IMG/VR virus record: IMGVR_UViG_3300034782_000062
Coordinates: 118,771-182,770 of that record
DNA from: a virus
Length of the DNA: 64,000 nucleotides
Direction: 5' to 3' (one strand)
This document shows positions 11,701 through 54,128 of the stretch, piece after piece (the stretch's first letter is position 1; every line of letters starts with the position of its first letter). The notes under the pieces are model-generated. The model did not search any database, had not been told where the DNA came from, and saw nothing but the letters and a program-made list of their open reading frames with translations. The position numbers were made by a program, and so were the translations under genes.

Positions 11701-13102
11701 TATCGGAACGGACACGGCGATTCTTGCGGCCATCACCAAGACTGCTGCGGGTACTGTTGCAGACTGGAGGACTATAGAATCCCAAATCAACGTCACAACA
11801 GGGTCTATTACAAATGCAAGGCACCTGAGGGCATTCTCTCCCGCTGGAGCAGGTTCTATCGGAACGATTTATGGCATCTATGTCGATACCCAGAAGACGG
11901 GGCCTGCTGCGGCGGCAACGTCCTATGGCTTTTATCAGGAGGGAACCGACGACGATAACTACTTCGCTGGTCAGACAAGCTTTGGAACGACGTCTCCTCT
12001 GACTACCCGCAGGGTCTATGTCGAGGTGGATGACGGTGAGTCGTACACTCGGGGTGTCGAGGCGAGGTTTGTCAAGAATGGGGCCTCGGGCGCGCAATCC
12101 TTTACCGGCTTTGAAGCATCGGTAAGGCACACAGGTAATCAGGCTGGCTTGTCCTATTTCGGGTATTCGATGGACATCAACTTCTCGCCGAGCGCTACTC
12201 AGAACTTGACGAGGCTTGTTGGTTACGAGTCTGCTCCTGGCTCAGGAAGTAACGCGACGATCTCAGAAATCGTCGGATTCCGGGCCACCACTGACGAGCT
12301 TGATGGCGCCATTACCAACTGGTATGGGCTCGAAGTCGAGCAGCCGAATACCGTCGGAACTGGCATCACGAACGCCTACGGTGTCTACATCGAGGATCAG
12401 AGTGGAAACACTCTTTCCTATGGCATCTATCAGGCGTCGTCTAATGACGTCAATTATTTTGCCGGCAATGTGGGTATCAACCAAACAGCGCCCCCCACTG
12501 CGAATTATTTGGACATAACCGACACCGATGATTCGGCGCAGAAGCGTGGCGTCAACGTTTATCTTCCGAAGGATGGATCAAGCAATGGAAAGGTGTTCTT
12601 GGGATTCCGATCCAATATCGACCATACCGGAACGGGAAACGCGCTAGGATACTATGGCTTCCGATCGGATCTGCTTCTCAATAATGCGTCGGCGACTATT
12701 ACGTCGATGTATGGTCTCTATGCTCAGCATTTTACGACCGGCGGAACCATTACGAGTAACTACGGCCTCTGGACTGGAGCTACAGCGAGCGGTAGCGGAT
12801 CAATTACCAACTCTTACGGTGTTTATATCGACTCCATGGGGGGGGCGACTCTTAGCTTTGGTGTCTACCAGGCGAGCGCCGCGGACACCAACTACTTTGC
12901 TGGAGACATCGGAATCGGAACAACGTCTCCTGCAACGAGCGCAGGTCTTGAGATTTCATCGACAACGAGAGCGCTTCTTGTCTCCAGAATGAACACGACC
13001 CAGAGGAACGCGCTGACCGCAGCAGCCGGCATGATCATATTCAACACCACGACATCGAAGTTCCAGGGCTACGACGGGTCCGCGTGGCAGGACTTCCACT
13101 AG
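8720..13102 (+). CDS. Tail fibre protein with YadA-head-like repeats
   Basis: 1460 aa; ~14-residue N.AVG..AL repeats at ~9400-10150; C-terminal NTTQRNAL...GMIIFNTTTSKFQGYDGSAW tail typical of fibres. Confidence 0.75.
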   Translation: MSNDYVTEIVGTGTYAIPSDDTELAAATSGLDTLISGVANLTYDRVLAWVEDSGGPGGAEGVRTLNCVIEKITYLANECPSETEIDTMTAAIESALEADANITSVGRQNFSCFAATGSSQLWLQDPGGFLYPSTTTDDVAVGGAIPNGKWFDDGDLVLGGNVMSGTERLRVFGDVLVDQDGSGRGNINLPATDTALTRGVYEINGSPALRVESNALYVGNSGASGVSKARSVAVGEGALSSVVNGSEENVAVGYQALQSLTLNNGESIAVGYRAAQSVVRADQTVVIGYDAMQNASITANENVVVGARACENSSLTFNSSVIIGHSAAFTGGGPTRGVFIGHQAGYSITSNPTETVAVGYQSLYNIIGTGGLGGDYNTCVGSESGRSLTTGSYNTFIGWECGRNAATNTQSNVAVGSGAFQTVATPSRWNIAIGNNSLGNTGGSAVEGNVSIGHSAGSTATAGYCVYLGYNAGQANATNNRLFIENSSDLNNPLIYGEFDGGGYLRVGGGMTIGNPKSAAPTGESVDAVYLDDGTNTTSGNPGWRYLVSTGPDVWADVGGGGGGSSPWTSAAGVIYPATITDDVAIGSSTLSGAANEHLFIKDTVESGLSTGAYILFEKNAADVKGAWNGVYVQIDHTGNSGLATGGYTSFWSDVNWSPAQTLNSNKGFLSQLDVANASGVVSDHKAFQAASPTGSGTITTSYGLFIDSMNGSTNSYGVYQSGTSDQNVFRGDTVVGALTMSGTELLRVAGNLRVDNDAVFVEQSDHSTTPAAGIGLLWVRNDSPNVLVFTDDAGTDTVLGAAGSSPWTSAAGVIYPSTLTDTVAVNSTSMLSSEKVFVKDDTEGGSSEGLIVQLEKDAATAKTNWTGVEVDTLLTGSSTTIVSPTSFLSDINLNVGTASVTGVATGYRTQLNVAGSASVASYMAFRSESPTVFGTLTNSYGLYIESMNGGTNSYGVFQQGSGDINYFAGNTAIGITTPTSSDILLVNNGVASGIGTDTAILAAITKTAAGTVADWRTIESQINVTTGSITNARHLRAFSPAGAGSIGTIYGIYVDTQKTGPAAAATSYGFYQEGTDDDNYFAGQTSFGTTSPLTTRRVYVEVDDGESYTRGVEARFVKNGASGAQSFTGFEASVRHTGNQAGLSYFGYSMDINFSPSATQNLTRLVGYESAPGSGSNATISEIVGFRATTDELDGAITNWYGLEVEQPNTVGTGITNAYGVYIEDQSGNTLSYGIYQASSNDVNYFAGNVGINQTAPPTANYLDITDTDDSAQKRGVNVYLPKDGSSNGKVFLGFRSNIDHTGTGNALGYYGFRSDLLLNNASATITSMYGLYAQHFTTGGTITSNYGLWTGATASGSGSITNSYGVYIDSMGGATLSFGVYQASAADTNYFAGDIGIGTTSPATSAGLEISSTTRALLVSRMNTTQRNALTAAAGMIIFNTTTSKFQGYDGSAWQDFH
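11980..12420 (+). repeat. 441-bp direct repeat, copy 2 (in fibre gene 8720-13102)
   Basis: Appears identical to 7113-7553. Confidence 0.9.
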
Positions 13103-13122
13103 AAACAGGACAGGGGATAAAA

Positions 13123-13347
13123 ATGGCAACGAACGTTTCGATTTGGAGATCGGAGTACTCTGGAAAACAGTTTTCCTCAGAGGAAGAGGCTAACGCCCAT
13201 GACGAACGAGTCCTCGATGTCATGGTCGCGTGGCTGAGAGAGAACATGGAAGCAGGCTGGCTGAACGAAGGTCAGCTCAGGGAAATCGCCGGCAGGTTCG
13301 CCGGCAAGATGACAGAGCTTCGAAAATTGATGTCCAAGGTCGATTAG
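13123..13347 (+). CDS. Hypothetical protein
   Basis: ATG after GGGGA RBS, 74 aa, converges on the leftward operon. Confidence 0.6.
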   Translation: MATNVSIWRSEYSGKQFSSEEEANAHDERVLDVMVAWLRENMEAGWLNEGQLREIAGRFAGKMTELRKLMSKVD

Positions 13348-14666
13348 GGTCGCACATCGTAGTTGTGCCCGGCCGGGGCTTCGCCGAGATGCGCTCCTCG
13401 AATGAATGGCGCTATCCACTTCAGCTTTCGCAAAGAACGTTTCGGGCCGTAGGGCTGGTTTCTCCAGTGCCCGCGGGTGATCGAAGGCCTTGTTAGCTTT
13501 CGTCCTGAGGACGATGGCCTTTCTCCGCTGGGGGCCGCTGGCGCCTCAGGGTTGATGACAATGTTCGTCCCCAGAAGCCAGTGAGGCACATGTTTCAGAT
13601 CCCGTATCGTCTTGAGGATGCGGTTTCGTGCTATTGCTCCGCCCTTCTTCTTCTTACGAGCCCGCTTTTCGAGACCATCGATCTGGTCTTGGTGGATGTG
13701 ACGCTTGTGGGCACCCGATGAGTTGATGTAGAGGATGGTGTTTGTTGCAATCCTCAGGATAGCGCGCTTGAATTCTCGGCCATATATCGTATCGCCAAAG
13801 ATGGTGCCGTAGGCTGTGATTCTTGGATCGTCCTGTGGCGCCTTGCCATCTCGAACCCTTTTGGAACTTCGAGAAAATATTTCAGCGGCTTGATCTCGTG
13901 TCATGGGCATGTGGACGTTGAGTCTGCCGTCTTGGGCCATCTCCCGGCCGATGTCACTCGCGTGCTCGACAAAGTCAATGACCTCGTCGAGCGGCTGGTC
14001 AGGGTTGAACATTGGGAGCCAGACGTCCATGACATGGTCGTCGCCGAGGTTGATGCTCTTCTCATTGGGCTCACAGAAAACGCCGACGAGAAGAGCATCT
14101 TTCCACATGGGCTCGGTGCCTTCAGCGATCGCCATGTAGCGCGCCTCGTGCAAACCTGTGACCTCATCGTTGCAGTAAACGGCCCCCTGGGGAAGCTCGA
14201 TGAAGAACGCAGGAAAGGGCATTTTTATGTGCTCGACGAAGGTGTTCTTGAGGTCGGTGTTGTGGAGCCCCCAGAGCAGCCCCTCAGAAAGCGTGAACCA
14301 CGAAGGGGTTGCTGACTGTTCGATGGTTTTGAGGTGCGTGTAGGATGTCACGCAGGTTGCTCGTGTGGAGTCGTGTTCATTCGCGGCTGGGATCGGTCTG
14401 AAGGGAAGGATGCTGAAGCCGTCATTCTCGAATTCGTCGAAGATGGCTTTGAAGGGCTCAAGGTATTGAAATTCGCTCCACCATCTTAGCTCTTCGAGGG
14501 GCATCCCGACGGTCAGGGCTTGATGAAGAGCGAGCTGCGCATCACATTGTTGCCTGAAGCACTCTTTGCCTTCGATCCGTCGCTGGTCGCCCTCGTTGTA
14601 GCGCCGTTGATGCTCCTCGATGAGCTTCATCCGTAGCTTGTGCTGGTCTCCCGTGAGCCGTCGCAT
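13344..14666 (-). CDS. Hypothetical phage protein with C-terminal RGHWR...WI motif
   Basis: 440 aa with good codon usage; preceded by a sigma70-like promoter. Confidence 0.75.
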   Translation of the reverse strand: MRRLTGDQHKLRMKLIEEHQRRYNEGDQRRIEGKECFRQQCDAQLALHQALTVGMPLEELRWWSEFQYLEPFKAIFDEFENDGFSILPFRPIPAANEHDSTRATCVTSYTHLKTIEQSATPSWFTLSEGLLWGLHNTDLKNTFVEHIKMPFPAFFIELPQGAVYCNDEVTGLHEARYMAIAEGTEPMWKDALLVGVFCEPNEKSINLGDDHVMDVWLPMFNPDQPLDEVIDFVEHASDIGREMAQDGRLNVHMPMTRDQAAEIFSRSSKRVRDGKAPQDDPRITAYGTIFGDTIYGREFKRAILRIATNTILYINSSGAHKRHIHQDQIDGLEKRARKKKKGGAIARNRILKTIRDLKHVPHWLLGTNIVINPEAPAAPSGERPSSSGRKLTRPSITRGHWRNQPYGPKRSLRKLKWIAPFIRGAHLGEAPAGHNYDVRP

Positions 14667-18057: not shown

Positions 18058-18351
18058 ATGGGTAAGCGTCGAGGTGGTGGACGGTTGAAAGGTGCGAACG
18101 CAACGTGCTGTTCGTGCGGAAAATGGGCGGACAAAGTGTGCTCGCAGTGCGGGCGTTTGGTTTGTGAATCGTGCGCCAGGCAGTGGCCTGTGTCGCAGCG
18201 GAAAAAGGTCAAAGGTGAATTGAAGATCGTCGGCACGGCAACCATCATAACGTGCCCAGCAAACAAGTGCCAGTCAAGATTGCCGCTTCAGGTTAAGGCG
18301 GATGCCCTCGAACTGTTGAAGGTTCCAGGGGATTTCCAAGACGCCACATAA
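18058..18351 (+). CDS. Cys-rich zinc-finger protein
   Basis: CSC...CSQC...CESC...C. Confidence 0.55.
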   Translation: MGKRRGGGRLKGANATCCSCGKWADKVCSQCGRLVCESCARQWPVSQRKKVKGELKIVGTATIITCPANKCQSRLPLQVKADALELLKVPGDFQDAT

Positions 18352-18872
18352 TGGTTCCCGACGGCGTCAACCAGGTCCGCCTCATGGGTCGAATCTACGA
18401 TCGGCCTATCGCTCGCAAGGCGAAGGGGCAGCAGCTTATCAAGGCTGTCCTCGAAGTGGACGAGCCAAAATTCGAGGACGGCCAGTGGACCAAACGGACT
18501 TCCTATCACACGGTTTCGCTCTTCGGGACAATAGCCAGGGTTTTTGATAAAAAATTAGACCATGGCGTTTTTATTTACGTCGAGGGGCGCCTTCATAATT
18601 TCCCCTATAAGGATGGCGAGGGGAAACAACATCTTCGCACTGAGGTCATGGCCTCACGCATTATCATCACCCCTCATCAGGAGGAGGAGGAGCAGGCTGA
18701 GCCCGAAGAGAGGGTGGAGCCTGCAGCCGAGGCAGAGGCTCAGCCAGTTCAACAGTCTCCAGAGCCTCCAGAAGAGCTGTCTGATGAGGACTTTGAGCAC
18801 ATGAAAAAGGTTGTTCCGCTCTTTCCTGAAAAAGATGAAGAGGTCGAAGACGAAGACCTTTTGCCGTTCTGA
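18351..18872 (+). CDS. ssb: Single-stranded DNA-binding protein
   Basis: NQVRLMGR...YHTV.LFG...G..IYVEGRL OB-fold; acidic tail ending DLLPF. Confidence 0.88.
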   Translation: MVPDGVNQVRLMGRIYDRPIARKAKGQQLIKAVLEVDEPKFEDGQWTKRTSYHTVSLFGTIARVFDKKLDHGVFIYVEGRLHNFPYKDGEGKQHLRTEVMASRIIITPHQEEEEQAEPEERVEPAAEAEAQPVQQSPEPPEELSDEDFEHMKKVVPLFPEKDEEVEDEDLLPF

Positions 18873-18880
18873 GGAGAATC

Positions 18881-19354
18881 ATGTCCAAAAGAAAGAATTC
18901 AGTCGCGCTCCTTTCCGTTGGCACGACCATTTTTAATGGCGAAGGGAACAGGTGGCTGTGCTTCGCGATTGAGGTGAGACCCTCTGGAAAGGATCTTGAA
19001 AACGCGCCGCGGATGCTTCGCGACATGGGCCGCGCCATCAAGACCTTCGAGCTGATAGCGGATCTTGAAGACGAGCACGTATTCGTGCCTGGCTCGAACC
19101 ACTGCTTTGGGCCGTTCGTCTATCCGGATGGCAAGGACTTCTTCGGTTTCGTCGTCTTCCAGACGCAAGAAGAGCTGGGAGACAAGGTCCCGTCCAAGGT
19201 TCGGGCTGGACTCAACGGAGCAATTGGTGTCCTCAAGCAGAGTGAAGTCCGGTGCCGTCAGCGAATCAAGCCAATCGAGCAGCTCATGCTTCCAGGGATG
19301 GAGATGATCCCTACAATGAAGCCCGAATCGGAAGAATCGGAGAGCGAAGAATGA
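18881..19354 (+). CDS. Hypothetical protein
   Basis: GAGGAG RBS, 157 aa. Confidence 0.7.
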   Translation: MSKRKNSVALLSVGTTIFNGEGNRWLCFAIEVRPSGKDLENAPRMLRDMGRAIKTFELIADLEDEHVFVPGSNHCFGPFVYPDGKDFFGFVVFQTQEELGDKVPSKVRAGLNGAIGVLKQSEVRCRQRIKPIEQLMLPGMEMIPTMKPESEESESEE

Positions 19355-19518
19355 TGTACGAATACGAGTGCACGGACCAGAAGTGCGGGCACAGGTTCGA
19401 TTGGATAGTGGATAGTGAAGACGAAAAGGTCTCCTGCGAGAAGTGTGGCGCAGAGGCCAAGCGCGTAAAGATCGCGCTGTCCAAGCACGCCAGGCGGCAA
19501 GACTGGCGTGTGACGTGA
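19351..19518 (+). CDS. FmdB-like zinc-ribbon protein
   Basis: MYEYEC..CGHRFD......CEKCG. Confidence 0.7.
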   Translation: MMYEYECTDQKCGHRFDWIVDSEDEKVSCEKCGAEAKRVKIALSKHARRQDWRVT

Positions 19519-19628: not shown

Positions 19629-20222
19629 ATGGCGAAGGCACGCGGATCACCATCCGCCATGCAGGTGGAGGAGTTCGAGGTGACCATCGAGGGGACGTCC
19701 CCTCTCGTGTTGTTACCTTTGGGCTTCTTCAAGGACTGTCCTGACGACGAAGACGGCCAGCTCGAACGCGCGCTCGACCTGTATCGTCGCGAGGATGGCA
19801 ATCCTGGGTTCCCGGCTGGCGGGCTCAAGGACGCGATTCTGGAGGGCTGCAAGAAGCTCGACGCGGACACTCGTTACCGAGTCGCATCCGGTTTTCACAT
19901 CGTCGGGGAGAACGCCACAAATCGAGTCCTCCTCAACGGGGACTCGGAAGGAGTCGACTTCGACTTCAACTTCAAGAGACCGAAACGCACCGTAACCAGG
20001 ACGCTCCCACAACTCGACAAGTGGACTTGTGTCTTTCCGGTGCAGCTCGTGACCGGGAGCCTGGACTCGAAAGAGTTCAATGAGTTCCTCGGGGTGGCCG
20101 GAGAGAAGATCGGCATCGGACATCGCCGACCTGAGATGGGCACCTTCAAGGTCACAAACATCGTTTCCAAGAATGGAATCAACAACCGCTCAAAGCGCAA
20201 AAGCAACAACAACAAGAGGTAA
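19629..20222 (+). CDS. RAMP/Cas7-like protein A
   Basis: VTIEGTSPL beta1; GFPAGGLKDAI (resembles the IPGSSLKG motif); C-terminal glycine loop GIGHRRPEMGTFKV. Confidence 0.6.
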   Translation: MAKARGSPSAMQVEEFEVTIEGTSPLVLLPLGFFKDCPDDEDGQLERALDLYRREDGNPGFPAGGLKDAILEGCKKLDADTRYRVASGFHIVGENATNRVLLNGDSEGVDFDFNFKRPKRTVTRTLPQLDKWTCVFPVQLVTGSLDSKEFNEFLGVAGEKIGIGHRRPEMGTFKVTNIVSKNGINNRSKRKSNNNKR

Positions 20223-20227
20223 TCGAG

Positions 20228-20968
20228 ATGCCCGCGAAGAAGAAGAAAGATGAAAAGATCAAGATTGAGCCGCTGGAGTTCGAGATCGCCGTCCTCCAGA
20301 TCATCGGTACCCGGCCACTGATCGTTCACGCCTGGGACCCCAAGACCCAGGCCGAGATGTTGGCGAAGCAGATGAAGCTGCCTGTCGCCGGGGCCAAGCA
20401 GAAGGTTCGCAACCCAGACGCCGAGTACGAGGCAGCACTCTACCGCATCCCCGAGGACATGGGAGGCGGATACGGGGTGCCCGCGGCGGCGTTCAAGCAG
20501 AGCTTCGTTGACGCCTGCCGTCATGTCGACATCGCAATGACGATGGCCACCGGAGCCTTCCACGTTCGAGGTGTCGAGGTGGACATGCCTCCTGTCATCC
20601 TCAACGACAAGGAGGGCAACCAGATCGAGACGGGCGACAAGTCGATGGAGATGATCCCCATCTACGGCTCGGAGCCTCGTCGCCGGATGGATATGGTTCG
20701 CCTCGAAGGTGGTAGTGCCGATATGCGGTTCAGGCCGCAGTTCGACAAGTGGTACTGCCTGGTGCCCGTCCAGATCGCCAAGGGTACGCTCACGGTTCAG
20801 CAGGTCACCGACCTGGCAAACCGCGCCGGCTTCCACTGCGGCATCTGCGAGTGGCGCCCATTCTCGAAGAAGTCGAAGAACGGCTCCTATGGGATGTTCA
20901 AGGTCGCGACGACCAAGGAGGAGCAGAAGCTCTTCAAGTCGCTGAAGCCACCAACGTTTATCCTCTGA
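20228..20968 (+). CDS. RAMP/Cas7-like protein B (paralog of A)
   Basis: QIIGTRPLIVH, YGVPAAAFKQS, RPQFDKW and glycine loop GICEWRP...GSYGMFKV. Confidence 0.65.
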   Translation: MPAKKKKDEKIKIEPLEFEIAVLQIIGTRPLIVHAWDPKTQAEMLAKQMKLPVAGAKQKVRNPDAEYEAALYRIPEDMGGGYGVPAAAFKQSFVDACRHVDIAMTMATGAFHVRGVEVDMPPVILNDKEGNQIETGDKSMEMIPIYGSEPRRRMDMVRLEGGSADMRFRPQFDKWYCLVPVQIAKGTLTVQQVTDLANRAGFHCGICEWRPFSKKSKNGSYGMFKVATTKEEQKLFKSLKPPTFIL

Positions 20969-21000
20969 TCGAGGAAAACTGACGGGGAAGGGACGCTCTT

Positions 21001-21504
21001 ATGGCCAAAGGAAGAATCTTCAAGTGGAAAAAGGGCTCGACCTTCAAGGTTGATGCCCAGACGGCTGGGACGTTTCTCGAAAATCTGAAGGCGGAGAATG
21101 ACGGAATTCTTCAGCCTGACGACGTCGTCGAGGCAGCGAAGGACCCAGAATCTCCGATTCATGACGAGTTCGAGTGGGACCTTCAGAAGGCCGCAAATAA
21201 TCACTGGAAGGACCGGGCGCGCAATCTTATGAATCACCTCGCGGTGGTTCGTGTGTACGCCGAAGATGCCAGTGAGGGCGTCTCAGCCTTCGTCAATGTC
21301 GAGGTCGCTCAGTCGACACGTGGTTACGTGGCGATGTCTCAGGTCGTCGCAAACGATGACTGGCGTCAGCAGATGGTCGATGACGTGCTCAATCGTCTGA
21401 AAGCTCTTCAGAAGAAGTATGAGCAGCTCGACGAGCTGGATGGCGTTTGGGCCGCGATCAAAAAAGCTGAGACGCGTCGAGCGAAGGGCTCGGCAGCAGC
21501 CTGA
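21001..21504 (+). CDS. Helical hypothetical protein, partner of the RAMP-like genes
   Basis: 167 aa with G.LQPDDVVEAA....SPIHDEFEWD...AA; last gene before the array. Confidence 0.75.
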   Translation: MAKGRIFKWKKGSTFKVDAQTAGTFLENLKAENDGILQPDDVVEAAKDPESPIHDEFEWDLQKAANNHWKDRARNLMNHLAVVRVYAEDASEGVSAFVNVEVAQSTRGYVAMSQVVANDDWRQQMVDDVLNRLKALQKKYEQLDELDGVWAAIKKAETRRAKGSAAA

Positions 21505-21718
21505 CCAGGCTGAAACGATGCTCTTTGACAATCTGGTTTTCTGAAGCAAAAGGCAGCAAGCTCCTGCTTAGGCGGCGAGTGTCTTCCTGTTCTTAGGTGG
21601 GTCGGGTTTTGTCCCGCCAGCCGAGTTGGGCCACGGTTAGCCATGGACCGACTAGCTGGGTCGGGTCGCGTCTCGGCCGGCGGGTCTGTTAAGGATTTGT
21701 CTTGAAAGAGATGGTCTC

Positions 21719-24700
21719 GGCAGTCACGGATAGGAATGGGACGGCCAGGGGGCGGAGCATTGGCAACGATGGCTCCGTCAAGCACCGAATAGGCAGTCAC
21801 GTCGAGGCGAAAGACGTGATACATTACATTTACTCTTGTAGGTGTCGGGTGCCAGTTTTTTTTTGGGCGGCATGGGGTCGTCCGATGTCATCAGTTGCTG
21901 ATGAGGTAGTGGGCACTGGCACCCGCCACCTACTTTTCATTCATCTTGAGGATGGCAGCCAAGCCATGTCGAGCACAGGCGGCGACGGCAACGTTCCGCA
22001 CTGCGAAGGCATGGAGAGCACAGCCCTGGCAGTCATGCTAGGGAGCGCTTTGCTCAGCGTTGGCTTGCTAAGCACCGCCGTTGATCGCAACGTCGCGGCA
22101 GCCGAGTTCTGAAGTGTTGAGTGGTGCCGGGGAGGGGCGGTGCGTGTCTGCGCGCACCTTGCCTTTGTAAGCGGTGACCTGGCAGTCGTGTCGAGGCGAG
22201 AAGCGGCACGTTGGGTCTATCACAGCGTAGGCGAAGCCGGGCAGCCGTGTCGCGGATGTGTAGCCTAGGGGCGGCACGTCAGTGAGGGGATATCCCGGTC
22301 CAGGCAGCTTTGCGTTGCTGTGCATCGTCAGTCGGCGGAAGCCAACGCGATCCCACGGAACGGCAGCGATGGAGAGCAGGAGAGGGTCCACGCGGCGCAA
22401 ACCGGGGTGGGCCAAGGTGCGATTGGAATGGCAGTCGAGGCGAATATCGACTACAGCCATCGCGGCTCGCCTCTACTGGTTGTGGCAAACAATGTTTTGC
22501 GACGGCCATGGTGGGGCAGCCTAGGTGAGCAGAGTGCTGGTGAGCATGGGCCAGTCGCGCTTGAGAACGTCTTGTCGCGGCAGCCGGTCAACGGTATGGG
22601 TAGGAGTGTCATTCACTGTCGCTCCCGTCAATGCCGAGTCGAGGCAGTCGGGTCATGTTGGAGTCGGGATAGCCGGTCATAGCGGGCGCCTGCCCCGTCA
22701 GAGCAGCCGCGGAAATCATAGGATCGCACGGGGTCGGAATTTAGTGGTTCGGCAGCCGTGTCAGGGTCCGCTCTGCTTGGGATCCGAGCGCCAAGCTCAG
22801 GCGCAGATGGCCGAGGCAGCCATGTCGAGTTGGTTATGGTTGTGCAGGTCACGCTGAGTCGTGCAGCACCGAGGCAGTCGGTCAGTGCCCCGTCGATGCC
22901 GGTTACGCGATGCGTAGGTGGTGATGGGACTGCCGAGGCAGCCGAGGACAGGACGGTCCCGCCCTGGACAGTCATAGCCAGGGGTGCTTTGTCAAGACGA
23001 GGCAGCCGAGGATGCATGGGTGCGCTGGGTCAGGTTTCGCCATTCAGGTGAGTGCGCTGTCGTGGCGTTATTACGGCAGCAGTGCCCTGTCGGGATCCGT
23101 CACACCGGGGAACTCAGGGGTAACCAGAGGTTTGCTCTGGCAGTCGGGCAATGTCAGCGTCTGCTCAGCAGCCGCTTGTCCTGCTGATGAGAGCCCAGCC
23201 CTGGCAGTCGGGCCTAGCACGGGACCGTTGAGCAATTCCATGGAGCGTCGTTGCAGGCGTTGCGGGGAGTGGTCGTCCGGTCACTCAACGCGATGGAACG
23301 CTAAGGTGTGCTGAGGCAGCGGTGCCTGGGAGCGTTGAGTCCAGCCATTATGGGCTTGGCCGAGGCAGCGGTGTTGAGGCGAGCTTGGCAGTGGCCCGTC
23401 CGGTCGAATAGATCCTTGTCGATCAGCGGCAGCCCTGCTGGGGAGTGGCCAGTCGCGTTCTGAACGCTATTGCTCGCAAAGCGTGGGTGAGGCAGCGGTG
23501 CCTCGTCGAGGTCAGCAACGCAATGGAAGGCAAAGGCCGAGAATGGACAGGATCGGCAGCGAGGTCGTGGCGATATACGGTCTGGCAGCAGTGTCTAGGT
23601 CGGTCGGGCTAGCTCAGTCATGGCCAACAAGGTCATGGTCGGGAGAGTCGAGGCCGGCATGTTTAGTCCGGCCCTTTGAGGCACAGGATTGGAAAGGTGA
23701 GGCAGTCGAGTCGAGTCGTTGTGGGGCCTTCAGGGGCAAACAACGGTGTGGCAGTCACGCGATGGTAGGTTCAGTCGCGTCCTGCTCAGCAATTCCTAGG
23801 AGAGCCTGGGGATGCAATGGCAGCTTTGCCAAGGGTGGGTGAGCACAGGCCTTCAGCGAAAAGTCGTTTCGCGTCGCGGCAGCCTGGTTGAGTTGAGGTC
23901 TCGCATGACGGTCCTTGGACCGCCGAGTCCCGACGCGGCAGCTATGCCCTGTCGTGTCATTCCCAGTCATTCAATGCAGAGGATTGGAAAGGGTGGCCGA
24001 GGCAGCAAAGCACCGGACGGGAGAGCCGTGTGACGTAAGGGGGAGCACCGCAGGTCAGAGCTAAGGTCCGGTTTGGCGAAATAAACCGACTAAGGCAGCT
24101 TTGCCGGTGTAGGCGATGGTTGTTTTTGGTGAGCTTGGTTGATCAGAGTAAGGGCAGCCGAGCAGAGGAACGTCATCGGATGCCTGGTCGTCCTAAGGAC
24201 GGACGAGTCTAGGCAGCACCGCAGAGCGGGGGACAGCGATGCGGCTCAGAGCATAGCAAGGGCTAGTCGCGGCAGCCTTGCTCTGTCCAGCTCGGGCGAG
24301 TCAACTCTGCGAGAGGACCGCTCGGGCCGGGATAGCGCCGGCAGCCGGGTCACGGCCTGGATCTCCAAGCAATGGATTCGCAGTGTGGGTCCGGTTATGG
24401 CAGCAACGCACAGCGAAGGCAGGCATTGGAATACCATGTCAGTCTTAGGTCCGCCACGATCAGGCAGTAAAGCTGGGGATTGAAGCGTCGCGGAGAATTG
24501 TGTTGCGCAATTGCGAGGCGAAAAAGCATTTGCGTTACGGCAGCGGTGCATAGGCTTGTTCAGCAAGCGCGTGCCAAGCCCGCGGGCGTCGTGGCAGCCG
24601 GGCACTGAAACGTCCAGGATCGGAGCAGCCTGCTTCCGCAGGTGGTGCCGAACCCGGTTGGGTCCTGGCAGCCGGGGATGGTTGTTCTGGGGCCAGGAGC

Positions 24701-25600
24701 CCCTGGTTATTCAGAACAGGGGTTTGGCAGCCGGCGTGAGCTGGGGCCAGGAGCCCCTGGTCGTCGCGAACGTTGGCCCGAAGAGGCAGCAGGGCTGAGG
24801 ATGGGGGAGCTGAGGCCAGACGCCGCATGTCTTGATCTGCATAGTCACGTCCTGGCGATATCAGATGTGACTTTGCTTTGCCGAATGGGGGAGCGTGTTG
24901 GTTTGGCAGCCCTGCGTTGGGTAGGACCGGTTAGTCCGGGACTTCCACGTCGGGCCGCTCATTGGACTGGCCGTCGAGTTGGGCCGGGGCACAATGGACC
25001 GCAGAGTTACGTCTCGTCCCGCCAAGGCAGCCGCGGTTCGTCACCGAACTCCATGCGACAGTTTGGGAGTCCGGGGACGGCAACGGATCGGCAGCCATGT
25101 CGCCGAGGGGCTTGCGATGCAGGGCACTGCAGGGGCATTCAGGTGCGCACCCTGGCAGCGATGCTGCGGAGGGGTGGGTCATTGAATGCTGGGCACTGCC
25201 GCCGCGCTGCGGGCCGTATCCTGGATAGGCAGGCGCCCCCCGGACTGGGGAGCCTTGACCTCCAATGGCGCTCTCAGGAGAGAAACGCCGTGGCAGCCGT
25301 GCTGATCCAAGGAGCGGAGCGCTTCGGAGAGGTGGGTCCGTCATGTCCATGGATTCGCTTAGGGAAGGACCGGCAGCAGCGTCTTGGTGACGAGTGGATT
25401 GTTCTGCTCGGCCCAAGCAAACATTGTCGCGGCAGCCATGTCCAGGTCCGTCACGTTTCGTCTTGCTTCTCAAAGCAATGGGGAGAGCGGGCGGGTCGGC
25501 GCCAGGCAGCAGCGGGTTGGGGTGCACAGCCGCGCCGCTGAGGGGAGTACCTCGGAGATCTACGGATAGGCAGTCACGACCTGGCGATATAGGAGTGGCT
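21719..25600 (+). repeat. Non-coding array of ~55 GGCAG-anchored units on a 5-nt lattice (putative guide-RNA array)
   Basis: GGCAG recurs mostly every 49/54/59/64/69/74 nt (5n+4); internal pentamers mostly end in G and start with a pyrimidine; no credible CDS. Confidence 0.85.
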
Positions 25601-25629
25601 TGAAAACATCTTGAGGATGGAGGGTTTTT

Positions 25630-47374: not shown

Positions 47375-47448
47375 GGGTCCATGAGCGTAAGGGTAGCGCT
47401 CCTGACTTTTAATCAGGCGGTCTGAGTTCGAATCTCAGTGGACCCACA
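47375..47448 (+). tRNA. tRNA-Lys(TTT)
   Basis: Cloverleaf; CCTGA-cTTTTaa-TCAGG; TTCGAAT T-loop. Confidence 0.85.
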
Positions 47449-47460
47449 AAATAACGTTTT

Positions 47461-47535
47461 CGGGGCGTAACTCAGTCTGGCTAGAGTGGGTGACTCTTAA
47501 TCACTTGGTCGGAGGTTCGAATCCTCTCGCCCCGG
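47461..47535 (+). tRNA. tRNA-Lys(CTT)
   Basis: GGTGA-ctCTTaa-TCACT. Confidence 0.85.
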
Positions 47536-47631
47536 CTAAATTGGACAACGTCGGTCCAGTGGTGACGGCCACGTTGATCTTTGACAATCAGGCATCAATT
47601 ACCGGCGCCCCCTTGCTGGGGCGCCGGATCG

Positions 47632-47707
47632 TGGGTCAGTAGCTGATACTGGTTTTAGCGCCAGGCTGTTAACCTGGAGATGGGGGTTCAATTCCCTCCT
47701 GGCCCGC
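47632..47707 (+). tRNA. tRNA-Asn(GTT)
   Basis: CCAGG-ctGTTaa-CCTGG. Confidence 0.8.
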
Positions 47708-47713
47708 TACCCT

Positions 47714-47789
47714 TGGGGTGTAGCTCAGTTGGAAGAGCACCTGGTTCTGGCCCAGGTTGTCGGGAGTTCGAGCCTCTCCACCCCAGCCA
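47714..47789 (+). tRNA. tRNA-Gln(CTG)
   Basis: CCTGG-ttCTGgc-CCAGG; CCA end. Confidence 0.8.
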
Positions 47790-48043
47790 CCTCAGCTCCG
47801 TTTCGGCAACCTGGAGTAGGTCGATTGAGATCAACGACTGCAGTCGTCTCTGGGAAACGCCCGATCGGCTCACCGAGGATACGGAGCAGTTGCCGCTCGA
47901 CACAAGACGCACACCAGTCGTGTGAGATTCGGGGAAGGTACCGCCCCGACCTGCGTTGAATTCAGGCGCTTGGTGGCCATCTTGCGTCTGGAGGAGCAGG
48001 TGGTCCAAACGGCGTCGATCGGGAGAGTGAGCTGGGGTGGAAT

Positions 48044-48118
48044 ACCGGTATCGTCCAATCGGTAGGACAACGGCCTTTGAAGCCGTGAATACAGGTTCAA
48101 GTCCTGTTGCCGGTGCCA
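48044..48118 (+). tRNA. tRNA-Gln(TTG)
   Basis: ACGGC-ctTTGaa-GCCGT; CCA end. Confidence 0.88.
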
Positions 48119-48152
48119 GTATGGTCGCCAGCCATGCTGACCCCCTTTTTGT

Positions 48153-48204
48153 GGGGTGGTGAGTTGCCCCAGGTCCGGAAGGAAGCAAGGTGATTCACCA
48201 CTCT
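48153..48204 (+). ncRNA. ffs: Minimal SRP (4.5S)-like RNA
   Basis: Hairpin GTGGTGAGTTGCC/GGTGATTCACCAC closing CAGGTCCGGAAGGAAGCA, the conserved SRP domain IV (helix 8) motif with GGAA tetraloop. Confidence 0.7.
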
Positions 48205-48207
48205 TTT

Positions 48208-48282
48208 GGGTCAGTACTCAATTGGTAAGAGCCCGCACTGAAAATGCGGCAGATATCGGTTCGATTCCGATCTGGCCCACCA
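48208..48282 (+). tRNA. tRNA-Phe(GAA)
   Basis: CCGCA-ctGAAaa-TGCGG; CCA end. Confidence 0.88.
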
Positions 48283-48293
48283 GGGGGAATGAC

Positions 48294-48719
48294 ATGGCTT
48301 TGGAAGACCTGGACTTCGGCTACGTCATCATTCGTCAGATGTACAGGCCGGAGCACAACGCGGCGGCACCCGTCGGTGTCGTCATCTTTGACCGTGACGA
48401 AGAGCGCTGGGCGATTCGCGTCCTCAGGACGGAAGAGTCGATTCCGTTCGGAGTGGTTCCAAACCACGCCTTCATCAGCATCGTCTCGGGTCAGATTCGG
48501 ACCTACGCAGCGGGGCATCGTGTCCCCTATCTGGACGAGGATGTTCCTCCATGGGAGGCAGTCTTCTGGATGCAGCTCGCGAAGCTCTACACCTGTGCGA
48601 TCCGAATCGACTCACCCAAGGCGATGGCTCGTCCCAAAGACGGCGTCAACCTCGACGTCGCGATCGAAAAGCTTTTTCAGTCGGTGGTCGAGCCGGTTGG
48701 AAAAGGCTATGTTCACTAG
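48294..48719 (+). CDS. Hypothetical protein (DUF3037-like)
   Basis: GGGGGA RBS; Y.IIR..Y.PE.....PVGVVI pattern. Confidence 0.6.
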   Translation: MALEDLDFGYVIIRQMYRPEHNAAAPVGVVIFDRDEERWAIRVLRTEESIPFGVVPNHAFISIVSGQIRTYAAGHRVPYLDEDVPPWEAVFWMQLAKLYTCAIRIDSPKAMARPKDGVNLDVAIEKLFQSVVEPVGKGYVH

Positions 48720-48790
48720 GTACCGAGGTCCAACGGTAGGACACCTGGCTGTCGACCAGGAGAAAGCGGGTTCGACTCCCGTCGGTACCG
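48719..48790 (+). tRNA. tRNA-Asp(GTC)
   Basis: CCTGG-ctGTCga-CCAGG. Confidence 0.85.
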
Positions 48791-48793
48791 CAT

Positions 48794-48877
48794 GGAGGGT
48801 GAGCGGCAGTGGTGCCGGCGCGGTTTTGAACACCGATGACCCTTGACGGGGCGCGTTCGACTCGTACACCCTCCGCC
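48794..48877 (+). tRNA. tRNA-Ser(TGA)
   Basis: CGGT-ttTGAac-ACCG; long variable arm; G73. Confidence 0.75.
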
Positions 48878-49039
48878 CTATCCCCCCGGAAGCTTCGGCA
48901 ACCGGGTGCAGGGGACCGAATTTCGGCCCCTAGCTTCATCCCCCACGGCAAGCCGTGGGCCTTGGGCAGCATGTTCCTGTCCTGTCGCTGGTAACGGTGG
49001 CGAAAGTCCCTCCTCTGAGCGCTCATTGGAGGGGCGCCT

Positions 49040-49124
49040 GGAAGCTGAAATGGCCAGGGTGCCATGCCCGCTTGGAAAGCGGTGCGCTCTCAAAAGGGGT
49101 GGGGTTCAAGTCCCTCGGCTTCCG
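49040..49124 (+). tRNA. tRNA-Ser(GGA)
   Basis: CCCGC-ttGGAaa-GCGGT; long variable arm. Confidence 0.75.
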
Positions 49125-49129
49125 CTGTT

Positions 49130-49219
49130 GGAAGGGGAATCGTCCAGGGTTGACGAGCCTGTTTCGAAAACAGTGCGCTCGCTGAAGAGGCGGGTGGGGT
49201 TCAAGTCCTCCTCCTTCCG
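49130..49219 (+). tRNA. tRNA-Ser(CGA)
   Basis: CTGT-ttCGAaa-ACAG; long variable arm. Confidence 0.78.
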
Positions 49220-49220
49220 T

Positions 49221-49307
49221 GGCAGAGAGAAGCGGGTATGGACCCGTCGCCGACTGCTAATCGGATGGTCCTGTAAAAGGGATGGAGTTCGATTCTCCCC
49301 TCTGCCG
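49221..49307 (+). tRNA. tRNA-Ser(GCT)
   Basis: CCGA-ctGCTaa-TCGG; long variable arm. Confidence 0.8.
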
Positions 49308-49356
49308 TAGGGCTCCCAGCTATCCTTCGCAAGGAGGACGCAGGGGTGGCCCGCAT

Positions 49357-49721
49357 GGGCCTGATTTGGTTTCGACAGGTACATGAAGTACGTAGGAGCG
49401 TGCCGGAGATGTCTCCTTGCCCGTCAAAACGGGAGGCAAAAAATCAGTTGTCAACACCGATAACTACCATGAAGCACCGCTCGCGAGGGCGGCGTAAGCT
49501 TCCGTTCCACCTGAGGTGCCGCGACTCGGGATGGGACGTCATTTAGTGGCTGGTCAGCTTTCAAGTCTCCGCTCGCTCGGGGCTGACGAGATAGAGAGTG
49601 GACATCTTCCGGGTACGACCTGCCTTGCTGGTCTACCGGTCGTATTGAAGCAGGGCTACGCACGTAGAGCCTACGAATGGACTGTGCGTGGACGCGGGTT
49701 CGATTCCCGCCAGGTCCACCC
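49357..49721 (+). ncRNA. ssrA: tmRNA; tag frame 49450-49497 encodes (A)VNTDNYHEAPLARAA*
   Basis: 5' GGGCCTGATTTGGTTTCGAC; 3' GCGGGTTCGATTCCCGCCAGGTCCACCA with a G-U pair at position 3; tag ends in AA-stop. Confidence 0.92.
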
Positions 49722-49782
49722 ATGGGTTGGCAGCTTGTGGAAAAAGTGTTCGGGGACGGCACTCAATAATCATCCCCAAACA

Positions 49783-49859
49783 CGGGCTGAGGGCTTGATG
49801 GTAAGCCGCCGCGTTCGGGACGCGGAGTAGTGTGGGTTCGACTCCCACCAGCCCGACCA
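49783..49859 (+). tRNA. tRNA-Pro(CGG)
   Basis: CCGCG-ttCGGga-CGCGG; CCA end. Confidence 0.85.
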
Positions 49860-49860
49860 T

Positions 49861-49935
49861 CGGGGTGTTGCGCAAGTGGTAGCGCGCCAGCTTTGGGAGC
49901 TGGAGGTTGCTGGTTCAAGTCCAGTCACTCCGACC
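49861..49935 (+). tRNA. tRNA-Pro(TGG)
   Basis: CCAGC-ttTGGga-GCTGG. Confidence 0.88.
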
Positions 49936-49941
49936 GATTCG

Positions 49942-50145
49942 ATCCGAATGCCAGAGGGATTACATCAACTAACGGTCCTAAGGTAGCGATGTTGCTTGCT
50001 GTAAAAAGACGCTGGCAGGCACTCAGCGACAGCGGTCACAACGAAAGCGGTGGCTGCGTTCCCAGTGCCGTAACCCTCTTCGGAGGAGCGGTGTACGGAG
50101 GCCGAAACGGGGCGCCGTGTGCTATCTCTTGCCCATTTGTCGGAT
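49942..50145 (+). ncRNA. Y-RNA-like element 1 (carries a 20-nt 23S rRNA match)
   Basis: 5' TCCGAATGC..GGGATTACAT / 3' ATCTCTT..TTTGTCGGA frame. Confidence 0.6.
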
Positions 50146-50174
50146 GGAATCATTTTTTCAAAAGGGGTGTAACT

Positions 50175-50729
50175 GTGTCTTCAGGTTATCGTTCAAAAAG
50201 AGCCCGTGCAGTATGTGCTGCGTTTGCTCGTGGTTATCGGGTTAGCGAGGATGGCGCACTGATTTCTCCTTCTGGGTTTGAGCTGTCGGATTCTTATAAA
50301 AACCAGAAGGGGTACAGGATGTTCAATATGCGCCTCCCGGGGGAGGCTGGAAATACAAGCGTTCCTGTTCATCAGCTCGCCGCCTTCCAAAAGTACGGCG
50401 ACAAAGCCATAGAAGAGGGGGTCGAGGTAAGGCATCTTGACGATAATAAAGAGAATAACTCTCCGAAAAATTTACTCATAGGAACGCGCTCCCAGAATAT
50501 GATGGATCGCTCTGAGGAGGTTCGGAGGCGATGCGCAAGAAAAGCCGCAAGGGCGAGAAGGAGACTAACGAATAAACAAGCTCAGCAGCTCATCGAAGAT
50601 AGAGCCGCCGGGAGCACATATCTGGGATTGGTTGAAAAATATGGCATAGCGAAAAGCACTATATCTTACATAGTTAATGGTCACATGTATCCAGAGTTGG
50701 ATAGGTCGTGTTTAGATATCCCGAAGTAG
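50175..50729 (+). CDS. HNH homing-endonuclease-like protein
   Basis: VHQLAAF..YG...EVRHLDDNKENN...NL..GTRSQN..D; C-terminal HTH-like segment; GTG start. Confidence 0.82.
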   Translation: MSSGYRSKRARAVCAAFARGYRVSEDGALISPSGFELSDSYKNQKGYRMFNMRLPGEAGNTSVPVHQLAAFQKYGDKAIEEGVEVRHLDDNKENNSPKNLLIGTRSQNMMDRSEEVRRRCARKAARARRRLTNKQAQQLIEDRAAGSTYLGLVEKYGIAKSTISYIVNGHMYPELDRSCLDIPK

Positions 50730-50809
50730 ACCACTATGGATGTGGGGTAGGCTGTAAACCTATCGTCGCCGCAAGGGGCCGTGAAAGTTCGATTCTTTCC
50801 TTCGGGACC
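50720..50809 (+). tRNA. tRNA-Tyr(GTA)
   Basis: TAGG-ctGTAaa-CCTA; long variable arm; acceptor CCCGAAG/CTTCGGG. Confidence 0.72.
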
Positions 50810-50956
50810 GGGAGAGTCTTTGTGGAGCCCTTCCACCGGGCCTGGTCGTAAGCCAGGTCGTTATAGGGGCGCCATAGTGCGCCTGGCGTGGAGCCATGGG
50901 AACCCACGAAACGGTGGTGGTAGACAAGGAGGTTCAAATCCTCCGGGCTCCCCCGT

Positions 50957-51055
50957 GCCCAAATGCTTGTGGGATTACATTGCGGCGATTGCAGCTAACG
51001 GGTTCGACTCCCGTTTGATAGCCCCGGTGGGCTTTTCTCGCACCTTTTGTTGGGC
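50957..51055 (+). ncRNA. Y-RNA-like element 2 (with T-arm)
   Basis: GCCCAAATGC..GGGATTACAT...ACGGGTTCGACTCCCGT...TTTGTTGGGC. Confidence 0.6.
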
Positions 51056-51059
51056 ATTT

Positions 51060-51136
51060 GCCACCGATGCCAAAGTGGTCGCGGCGCCAGGTTGTGGACC
51101 TGGTTTTAGGAGGTTCGAGTCCTCCCGGTGGTACCA
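51060..51136 (+). tRNA. tRNA-His(GTG)
   Basis: CCAGG-ttGTGga-CCTGG; CCA end. Confidence 0.8.
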
Positions 51137-51169
51137 ATGTGGTAGTATTCCCCCGTTCGGAGGGAAACC

Positions 51170-51751
51170 TTGGCCATCATTGACAAAAGAACGCCGAAGA
51201 CGGCGAACTCAGGAAATGCTCTTGCACGGTTTTTGTTCAACAAAGGGCTGATAAAGCCTGGTGAGAAGGTTCTCGACTTCGGCTCGGGATCGGGTCGCGT
51301 CGCGGTGCCGCTCTCGAAGCAGTGCACGGTGAAGGTGATCGAGGGCAACGAGGGGTGCCTGGCGAACCTGCTCGACTGTGGCTTCGAGAGGCCAGAGCCT
51401 GGCGAGAAGTTCGACGTCGCCATGGCCTTCTTCGTCTTTCAGCACAACACGCTGGAGAAGGTCAGGGCGATCACCCACTCCTTGTCGTACATGGCCAGGC
51501 GGCTAGTCTTCACCTACCCGACTCATGAGCTGCTCGCGCTTCGGCCGGGCAACAAGCTCAAGTGGGTGCCCGCGGCCGAGCTGAAGGAGCAGCCGATTCC
51601 GGACTGCAATCATCTCAGCGGCGTGCTTCACGAGGCTGAGCTTCCCACCCTGTTCGAGACCTCCGAGTTCGACGTCAGCACCCTTCGCTTTGTCGTGGCG
51701 CAGGCCATGGGCAAAGAACGCGTTCGCGAAATCAAGAGCAAGGTCCCGTAG
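51170..51751 (+). CDS. Class I SAM-dependent methyltransferase
   Basis: VLDFGSGSGR, FDVAMAFFVFQH; TTG start. Confidence 0.78.
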   Translation: MAIIDKRTPKTANSGNALARFLFNKGLIKPGEKVLDFGSGSGRVAVPLSKQCTVKVIEGNEGCLANLLDCGFERPEPGEKFDVAMAFFVFQHNTLEKVRAITHSLSYMARRLVFTYPTHELLALRPGNKLKWVPAAELKEQPIPDCNHLSGVLHEAELPTLFETSEFDVSTLRFVVAQAMGKERVREIKSKVP

Positions 51752-51814
51752 CTCAGGTGGAAGAGCGTTGGATTCCTAATCCAAAGGCCGTGAGTTCGAG
51801 CCTCACCGGGATCG
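51742..51814 (+). tRNA. tRNA-Arg(CCT)
   Basis: TTGGA-ttCCTaa-TCCAA. Confidence 0.88.
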
Positions 51815-51882
51815 CCTCACCAGGGGAAAACCGCGAGCTGGCAGATAAGCGTGTACACCGCTTTCGGTCACTTCCCCGCCAT

Positions 51883-51958
51883 AGGGCAGTAGCTTTAATG
51901 GGAAAGCACCGGATTCCAAATCCGGCGATTGGGGGTTCGAGTCCCTCCTGCCCTGCCA
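51883..51958 (+). tRNA. tRNA-Trp(CCA)
   Basis: CCGGA-ttCCAaa-TCCGG; CCA end. Confidence 0.9.
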
Positions 51959-51959
51959 T

Positions 51960-52035
51960 CCCTCGTGGGTCCGCTGGGTGGACTCCTGACTGTCTATCAG
52001 GGTAGAGGCGAGTTCGATTCTCGCACGGGGGGCCA
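51960..52035 (+). tRNA. tRNA-Asp(GTC), second copy
   Basis: CCTGA-ctGTCta-TCAGG; CCA end. Confidence 0.8.
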
Positions 52036-52041
52036 ACGTTC

Positions 52042-52116
52042 GCTCGGTTCGTCTATCGGTTAGGACACTGGCCTTTCACGCCAGTAAGAGGAGTTCGATT
52101 CTCCTACCGAGCACCA
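52042..52116 (+). tRNA. tRNA-Glu(TTC)
   Basis: CTGGC-ctTTCac-GCCAG; CCA end. Confidence 0.9.
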
Positions 52117-52117
52117 T

Positions 52118-52194
52118 GCCCCGGTGGTCTAGTTGGTTTAGGACACTCGCCTGATAAGCGAGAGGTGGTCGGTTCAAGTCCGACCCGGGGTACC
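52118..52194 (+). tRNA. tRNA-Ile(GAT)
   Basis: CTCGC-ctGATaa-GCGAG. Confidence 0.88.
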
Positions 52195-52204
52195 GGAGGT
52201 TGTC

Positions 52205-52576: not shown

Positions 52577-52634
52577 CGGTGAATGCACCGGTCTTATAAA
52601 CCGGCGATTCCGGGTTCAAATCCCGGGTGGGGCA
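52562..52634 (+). tRNA. tRNA-Ile(TAT)
   Basis: CCGGT-ctTATaa-ACCGG; A73. Confidence 0.8.
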
Positions 52635-52894
52635 CTGAGAGGGAGGAAGTCGTCGCGCGAAGGAGCAGCACCTGGCATTCCTGTAGTGTCAGGCGCCCTC
52701 GCATAGGCCTAGCGAGGAAAAGTCGTTCCATGCATATCGCGTAAAGTGCGGCTCAAACGAAGGAACTTGCTGAACTGATAACTAGGCGTTTGAGACAGGG
52801 ATTCGAGACGCTCCGTGCATGAGTGTCTTGCAGGCGGTTTGCGCAAATCGGCTGCCCTGGGGTACAGGCAGCTCGTCCTCACGACCCTCTCTTT

Positions 52895-53188: not shown

Positions 53189-53195
53189 CTTTTTT

Positions 53196-54118: not shown

Positions 54119-54128
54119 CTGAGCACAT

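Follow-up and report, generated by a model that had tools for sequence, protein, structure and literature searches.

VIPR systems (for Viral Interference Programmable Repeat), first described in 2026, are CRISPR-related, phage-borne, RNA-guided silencers of DNA, as set out in the founding reports (10.64898/2026.04.26.720920; 10.64898/2026.04.26.720927). The effector Vipr is a minimal RAMP protein, with an RRM core, a G-loop and a thumb, that polymerises on guide RNAs (vrRNAs) of 9–16 YNNGG repeats, in which the GGY trinucleotide is hidden and the two variable bases (NN) are presented; NN pairs with double-stranded DNA (dsDNA), skipping every third target base, and genes of rival phages and satellites are silenced (10.64898/2026.04.26.720920). 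The same report counts 670 Viprs in 667 systems of seven types, and describes variants with degenerate YNNNG and NNNNG motifs as well as 'staggered' arrays whose consecutive vrRNAs overlap by 1 nt (10.64898/2026.04.26.720920). The type II system of Escherichia phage SUSP1 (PDB 36pp) has four guides of ~100 nt whose 3′ ends are each closed by a pseudoknot tail, its scaffold is strictly GGY, and its structure paper names the Vipr residues recognising G1, G2 and Y3 (10.64898/2026.04.26.720927). VIPR is months old as a subject, and characterisation has so far reached no more than a few small type II loci.

Here we analysed a 64,000-nt stretch (the window) that forms the last 64 kb of the 182,770-bp single contig of a phage genome, IMG/VR record IMGVR_UViG_3300034782_000062, hereafter phage W. 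We found that a long pentamer lattice behind three small genes is very probably a staggered vrRNA array, that is, a set of guide RNAs belonging to a VIPR system. The assignment was made because of Vipr homology and fold, the pentamer array itself, the linkage of genes and array, and conservation that is confined to NN. The core features are listed here, with B for a base other than A, H for a base other than G and N for any base.

19629..20222, + strand: short Vipr paralog, RAMP-like, 197 aa (phrog_4652, E 1.9e-11; aligns with the Vipr family)
20228..20968, + strand: Vipr, predicted guide-binding RAMP/Cas7-like protein, 246 aa (profile match and fold; phrog_4652, E 3.3e-17)
21001..21504, + strand: vap, VIPR accessory protein, 167 aa (phrog_15946, E 1.5e-18)
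21954..25573, + strand: main array, putative staggered vrRNAs, ~55 units of GGCA + n × (G-B-H-N-N), n = 9–16

The ~4 kb between the three-gene cluster (19629–21504) and the next gene (GTG at 25630) lacked a period-3 signal and had elevated G+C and GC skew. A first-pass annotation, made from the sequence alone, had described an array grammar here, with GGCAG anchors spaced 5n+4 apart and G at every fifth base, and this was confirmed by anchor spacing, autocorrelation and a blind hidden Markov model (HMM). Between 21954 and 25600 the + strand carried 55 copies of GGCAG, compared with 8.8 ± 2.9 in shuffles (maximum 19, n = 1000) and with 3 copies of the complement CTGCC. Counted in 2-kb bins, the two array bins held 30 and 24 copies and all other bins of the window 0–7. 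Spacings between exact copies in this interval equalled 4 mod 5 in 38 of 54 cases (P = 1.8e-15 at p = 0.2) and were off-register in 16; when the annotation's own edits were applied (merging at 23387 and 24418, splitting at the AGCAG at 22702), its count of 41 of 53 was reproduced exactly (P = 4e-19). Period-5 autocorrelation, which had been proposed as a check, gave a clear signal at lags 5–25 in the array and nowhere else in the genome. Values for G at lags 5, 10, 15, 20 and 25 were +0.15, +0.13, +0.15, +0.10 and +0.09, and ~0 in the coding flanks, and in a lag-5 scan of the entire 182,770 bp only the array region stood out (0.12–0.27; genome mean 0.002, standard deviation 0.039). The pentamer HMM, which was given no information on GGCA, called 21556–25571 as the sole region on both strands of the full genome, with phase slips of −1 in 61 cases (48 exactly at GGCA|G), of +1 in 2 and of −2 in 3. 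Over this span the period-5 G lattice lies on the + strand, measures ~3.9 kb and is cut by GGCA|G into ~60 units of 5n+4 nt, with n = 9–16.

Alignment of the units at their anchors gave the logo G (78%), not A, not G, N, N, which we write as G-B-H-N-N, plus the 4-nt GGCA of each unit. The pentamer had been read at first as Y-N-N-N-G; this is close, but its first position, our scaffold position 2, is C in 43%, G in 32%, T in 21% and A in 4%. Units of 64 nt (13 units) and 59 nt (11 units) were the commonest in the main array. Two units quoted as examples, at 24153 and 24212, were letter-exact, and it also holds that no two units are identical, the highest identity within the array being 0.63. 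Units 24667 and 24726 do have an identical 21-mer in common, at 24687–24707 and 24741–24761 (repeat family D19), which looks like a recent local duplication and offers a clue to array growth. The array had no blastn match in 50,697 phage records, and an Rfam scan of the window returned only tRNAs and a tmRNA outside the array, with no CRISPR repeat family.

The protein evidence came from the gene for the 246-aa protein. A profile of its family matched PDB 36pp_D, 'SUSP1 Vipr protein', over 190 residues with E 1.7e-12. Residues that grip the trinucleotide in SUSP1 have counterparts in W: H17 corresponds to H34 (PLIVHAW), R138 to the thumb arginine of RFRP, and D177-W178-R179 to E208-W209-R210 in the G-loop GICEWRP, with D changed to E. 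In the HMM alignment all five (H34, the RFRP arginine, E208, W209 and R210) are invariant or nearly so across the family. The AlphaFold 2 (AF2) model of the protein had a mean predicted local distance difference test (pLDDT) score of 87, and its best Foldseek matches were exclusively Cas7, Csm3 and Cmr proteins. None of the 197-, 246- and 167-aa proteins has a Pfam family. The third, vap, is missing from just one of the phage records that have a Vipr homolog (33 compared with 34 records) and is present in 80 of 87 fetched loci. A structural search with its AF2 model (pLDDT 85) gave no significant match; the weak fold matches were all winged-helix DNA binders (E ≥ 0.6), a consistent trend, and the modelled protein is probably winged-helix-like.

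Phage W is taken to be a jumbo phage because it carries 31 tRNA genes (ARAGORN; Rfam scores 29), one tmRNA and phage-type genes and lacks a cellular core. Its close relatives (L003–L007, L089, L090 and L092) all have the same three genes, followed by a 2.2–3.2-kb array of the same grammar, and the contigs of metagenomic phages on which close homologs of the 246-aa protein occur reach 290 kb in length. We then considered distant IMG/VR relatives at 35–41% identity, 80 of the 396 found, and a + strand period-5 array was present in 75 of the 80. These arrays are 50–1124 nt long, have a near-canonical GGC scaffold and lie mostly ~0.5–1.3 kb downstream of vipr, a few being upstream or immediately adjacent. 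By comparison, arrays of the jumbo clade measure 2.2–3.9 kb and their scaffold is much looser, the relaxed logo and the 5n+4 rule recurring together in no fewer than four independent arrays, most of whose units differ. Distant Vipr homologs (33% identity) were also found in Mycobacterium phage Saal and Gordonia phage Ecliptus, beside ~210–260-bp arrays of plain GGC-NN pentamers with GGCA punctuation. The Saal array (L001 5569–5829) lies upstream of gp51 and the Ecliptus array (L002 6605–6812) between gp19 and gp20. Both loci are small and canonical, with Vipr, vap and an array, and their genes are annotated merely as hypothetical; the Ecliptus module, with helix-turn-helix genes of its own, forms an insertion that separates the tail chaperone gene from the tape-measure gene. 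The two phages would be good test beds, as hosts and dense genome collections are available.

To define which positions carry information, units of W were compared with those of relatives. Most units differ between related phages, and several W units have counterparts in L003, L005, L090 and L092. In seven shared-guide pairs (73 pentamers) mismatch at positions 1–5 was 0.27, 0.51, 0.66, 0.07 and 0.04, and the expectation from unrelated units is 0.37, 0.67, 0.69, 0.73 and 0.74; the pairs were chosen for similarity, so the low mismatch at NN is partly built in, but the near-random scaffold is not. The unit at 24340 and L003:13864 have 11 differences and 22643 and L003:13805 have 17, with none in NN in either case. 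Matching W against L003 on NN alone gave five pairs at or above 0.9 (90–100% identity), a level that other position pairs never reached, and arrays without shared guides had an NN-match maximum of ~0.65. Such conservation is the mark expected of a guide selected for its target, and, since substitutions concentrate in positions 1–3 and almost none fall in 4–5, the sequence comparison places the code at N4N5, that is, at positions 3–4 of the pentamer when it is written xxxxG. The first-pass annotation had put the coding dinucleotide at positions 2–3 of xxxxG, and this part does not stand: its position 2 shows 66% mismatch in shared guides, the level of unrelated sequence, when positions 3–4 show only 4–7%. 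The string that it decoded for unit 24212 is accordingly off by one base, the VIPR reading being CC GA GG CA AT GC GA TA AG TA GC. The comparison thus settles which two of the five positions inform when the scaffold is degenerate. NN kept over a saturated scaffold is also purely evolutionary support for a non-contiguous code, far from the experimental models.

Comparison with described systems placed the locus nearest to the staggered arrays. These have in common with W a phage-borne Vipr (a minimal RAMP) with vap, guides of 9–16 pentamers in which a variable dinucleotide accompanies a fixed trinucleotide, abutting units with a 1-nt overlap and without tail or ribozyme, and degenerate motifs; the 5n+4 rule of W is the counterpart of that 1-nt overlap. 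W differs in having ~60 guides in 3.9 kb on a G-B-H scaffold, when the arrays of its IMG/VR relatives measure 50–1124 nt, and in its second, short Vipr paralog, which the accessible part of the published text does not describe. With SUSP1 it has in common a homologous Vipr with the H, R and [DE]WR guanine-binding residues, NN specificity and, by analogy, one protomer per pentamer. Unlike SUSP1 it has tail-less guides, GGCA punctuation, a relaxed scaffold and two Vipr paralogs, and the low-identity protein match is detected only by profile. Class 1 CRISPR-Cas effectors (Cas7/Csm3) resemble the system in a RAMP fold with thumb and G-loop and, by analogy with other VIPRs, in a helical filament on guide RNA and periodic gaps in pairing. 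Their period, however, is 6 with five pairing bases, whereas that of W is 5 with two, and the W guides are hard-wired pentamer lattices instead of captured spacers. The W locus is also without cas1/cas2, Cas5, Cas6 and a large subunit; a repeat search for class 1 direct repeats (~23–50 nt) found nothing conserved beyond the GGCAG neighbourhood, and among the nine proteins flanking the array there were no Cas matches in Pfam or PHROG, only the two RAMP paralogs. TIGR-Tas, in which a dual-spacer array of 18-nt period goes with a Nop-domain Tas protein, was set aside, as the period here is 5 and not 18 and a Nop-domain match is absent. The kind of system is already published, and what the jumbo clade adds is the great size of its staggered array, the relaxation of the scaffold and a second Vipr paralog.

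These observations at the W locus and in its relatives (the grammar, Vipr homology and fold, conservation and NN-confined selection) can be combined with published work on other VIPR types, from which RNA processing, DNA binding, the 1-nt skip and silencing are carried over. In the resulting model the + strand of the array would be transcribed, with vipr-short, vipr and vap lying upstream of it, and each unit of GGCA plus 9–16 pentamers would, by analogy, yield one guide. One Vipr protomer would occupy each pentamer and present its two variable bases, and would sequester the scaffold, which is G-B-H here and GGY in the published type. The string of dinucleotides would then pair with dsDNA and skip every third target base, as in the described systems, so that codon positions 1–2 would be read and the wobble position ignored. 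The 4-nt GGCA would shift each unit one base out of register, ending one filament and starting the next. By the same analogy the filament would block transcription of the target, the likeliest targets being genes of competing phages, satellites and other mobile elements.

The annotation had itself proposed gapped guides, and the core of that idea is borne out by the published VIPR mechanism and by the comparisons above: a ~60-nt unit would be one guide with its specificity in variable lattice positions. Its suggestion of cutting near GGCAG is compatible, by analogy, with the 1-nt overlap of the published staggered arrays. Its details were off, however. It assumed a 3-nt gap in the target (NN-xxx-NN), and the published rule is 1 nt (NNx, matching codons) (10.64898/2026.04.26.720920); the NN-xxx-NN search as proposed would probably fail. 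If the model is right, a lytic-looking 183-kb phage gives 2% of its genome to ~60 hard-wired guides, a scale that implies a broad silencing programme against rivals or host functions, and tail-less guides on a relaxed scaffold would broaden the engineering design space.

Several results weigh against assigning the array to VIPR guides in this form. The experimentally characterised VIPRs are of type II and have ~20% sequence identity to the W system. With G at G2 in only 32% and a pyrimidine at Y3 in 61%, the scaffold is so much looser than GGY that recognition contacts of the SUSP1 type may not transfer unchanged to G-B-H. On the favourable side, NN dinucleotide usage correlated best with sense codon positions 1–2 (r = 0.81 here and 0.57–0.68 in three other arrays), which agrees with wobble skipping; this is a compositional measure, though, and the runner-up, antisense positions 2–3, was not far behind at r = 0.71. 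Target searches also came back empty. Exact NNx patterns of guides 24340, 22643, 21954, 25431 and 22028 had zero matches in viral contigs. Nothing matched 24340 in metagenome contigs or 22643 in genome contigs either, and a degenerate pattern written for the 24539 guide group again gave zero. In a local scan of 96 guides from four arrays against the genome of W and the loci of three relatives, run with skips of 0–3 and control position pairs, a skip of 1 nt was not preferred over 0, 2 or 3; the same scan found no self-targets.

One search did give matches. A degenerate NNx pattern of the most conserved guide (23819 with its orthologs, three variants) matched 13 IMG/VR contigs, all in a single LRAT/PPPDE-like gene of 157–175 aa, in the sense direction, with the skipped base at codon position 3 and over the catalytic F-N-C-E-H-F-V-N-F-A motif. 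The matched contigs have 26–34% GC, only the L005 guide variant matches in full, and by a rough estimate about one independent match is expected by chance. We regard this as a lead and not as a finding. The gene with the NCEH motif was absent from the W genome and from the fetched loci of its relatives. On the matched contigs (L093–L105, from IMG/VR, one labelled a giant-virus metagenome-assembled genome) the LRAT/PPPDE-like protein is conserved and has a C-terminal hydrophobic tail.

Other explanations of the lattice were weighed against the same evidence. The array could serve as a decoy or sponge, a long RNA of Vipr-binding lattices that soaks up or redirects the Vipr of rivals. Orphan, satellite-borne solo vrRNAs that hijack a rival's Vipr have been documented (10.64898/2026.10.15.759431), and the loose scaffold and the failure of our searches to find targets would fit. 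In every relative, however, the array stands in an operon-like arrangement with vipr genes of its own, and the NN-specific selection on shared guides would be needless for a pure sponge, so that we consider a decoy improbable. The relaxed scaffold, with G2 being G in so few pentamers, together with the off-register spacings and several degenerate punctuation marks, could also be taken as signs of decay, the array then being a relic of a canonical GGY array that is drifting to randomness and is no longer used. Against such drift, at least four independent arrays with mostly different units have this relaxed logo and the 5n+4 rule in common, phase slips are nearly all −1 and fall at GGCA, the NN of shared guides are 93–96% identical while neighbouring bases are saturated, and the Vipr genes remain intact and conserved; the relic is slightly less credible than the decoy.

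The lattice could, lastly, act as DNA, that is, as a centromere-like or nucleoid-protein lattice on dsDNA with a 5-bp repeat. Plasmid and phage centromeres can consist of iterated short motifs, and vap weakly resembles a winged-helix DNA binder. Here we found strong strand asymmetry (55 GGCAG against 3 CTGCC; GC skew ~+0.19) and linkage to an RNA-binding RAMP whose family has a solved vrRNA complex; a 5-bp period would place successive sites on opposite faces of the helix, and NN-only conservation fits a repeated protein-binding site poorly. Of the explanations weighed, we give this one the least credence, and staggered VIPR guides remain the preferred reading. TRAP-like ring binding (11–12 triplets with 2–3-nt spacers) was dropped, as the neighbouring gene is a Vipr homolog and related loci are canonical GGC-NN, and a lattice for single-stranded DNA annealing or single-stranded DNA-binding protein (SSB), a centromere and a type III toxin-antitoxin RNA were dropped on the same evidence.

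The residue comparison of the short Vipr paralog covered four orthologs, all of them alike. They lack the histidine of PLIVH and a helical-bundle insertion of ~20 residues, and their G-loop reads GIGHRRP (GIGH[R/D]RP across orthologs) instead of GICEWRP, with E-W gone; of the guanine-gripping residues only the R179 equivalent is retained. In Vipr the helical bundle holds the skipped target base, and the R179 equivalent stacks on the third scaffold base. Orthologs of the short paralog were found in W, in L003–L007 and in five further metagenome loci, and none in 82 other loci examined or in 185,579 species genomes. When the short paralog was modelled in complex with the long one, the interface score ipSAE was 0.68, compared with 0.02 for the best control, a mark reached by 58 of 80 solved complexes and by 2 of 110 mismatched pairs. 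The runs had 70% or more of their contacts in common, partner pLDDT was at least 83, and the modelled interface placed the thumb and G-loop of the long paralog against the helix-1 face of the short one. The two are RAMPs, from a family whose filaments have been solved, and alignments of our own were used, so the pass may mirror a likeness to those structures; that the short paralog binds the long one is supported by the model but not shown by it.

Every member of the jumbo clade (W, L003–L007 and the other short-paralog loci) combines the short paralog with the G-B-H scaffold and an array expanded about ten-fold, and each of the three is absent from the 82 other loci examined. A tentative proposal, which we think possible but would not favour, is that the jumbo clade is a distinct VIPR subtype with a heteromeric effector in which the short paralog caps the end of the filament. 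At the terminal GGCA the cap would supply what is missing from the pocket of the C and would halt filament growth, replacing the pseudoknot tail of SUSP1-type guides, and capping would permit arrays to become very long with guides that have no tail and a relaxed scaffold. A stripped-down second RAMP, modelled as docked on Vipr, resembles a split within VIPR like that of Cas7 and Cas5, possibly a first step to subunit specialisation, and bears on the proposal that VIPR-like systems preceded CRISPR. A related idea, that GGCA punctuation can be read only with the help of the short paralog, was weakened, as the single-Vipr actinophage arrays of Saal and Ecliptus also use GGCA.

Additional elements were found around the main array.

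21556..21811, + strand: mini-array of ~5 units with partly degenerate punctuation (GCCA, GGCC, GGCA, GGGG, GGCA), from the HMM parse
21838..21933, + strand: long stem-loop that separates the mini-array from the main array, with a T-rich stretch after it, from repeat search (I1) and RNA folding
21942..21955, + strand: 14-bp direct repeat CATCTTGAGGATGG, copy 1, read from the sequence
25607..25620, + strand: 14-bp direct repeat CATCTTGAGGATGG, copy 2, overlapping the ribosome-binding region of the gene starting at GTG 25630, read from the sequence

The stem-loop has 19-bp arms that are 95% complementary and an RNA folding energy of −65.1 kcal/mol (z = −3.95); it is a possible terminator, attenuator or processing element. 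The identical CATCTTGAGGATGG repeats flank the main array, which suggests that it was inserted or expanded at this site. We also noted a recurring short motif, approximately GGCAGTCACG-N-C-NN-GGCGATAT, at 21792–21813, 23555–23577, 24843–24861 and 25569–25591 (repeat families D4, D5 and D8). Runs of regular units stop at these sites: the mini-array closes at the first and the main array at the last, and the other two lie within the main array. The motif could serve sub-arrays as a terminal or processing element. In L005 the large array is interrupted at 13049–13823 by ~770 bp with a called 225-aa gene, and likewise in L006 and L007.

Upstream of the VIPR genes, positions 18351–19518 of the window hold an SSB gene, a 157-aa gene without matches and a small zinc-ribbon open reading frame. 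The order SSB, zinc-ribbon, vipr-short, vipr, vap was also found in L005–L007, and L003 has the same order starting at the zinc-ribbon gene, with no SSB called there. The 31 tRNA genes and the tmRNA, whose tag peptide ends in ARAA, form a block at 47375–63995 of the window, all on the + strand. Between 28079 and 29259 an RNA ligase-like protein comes after one with a cREC_REC domain (cyclic-phosphate processing receiver), the two making a possible RNA repair pair.

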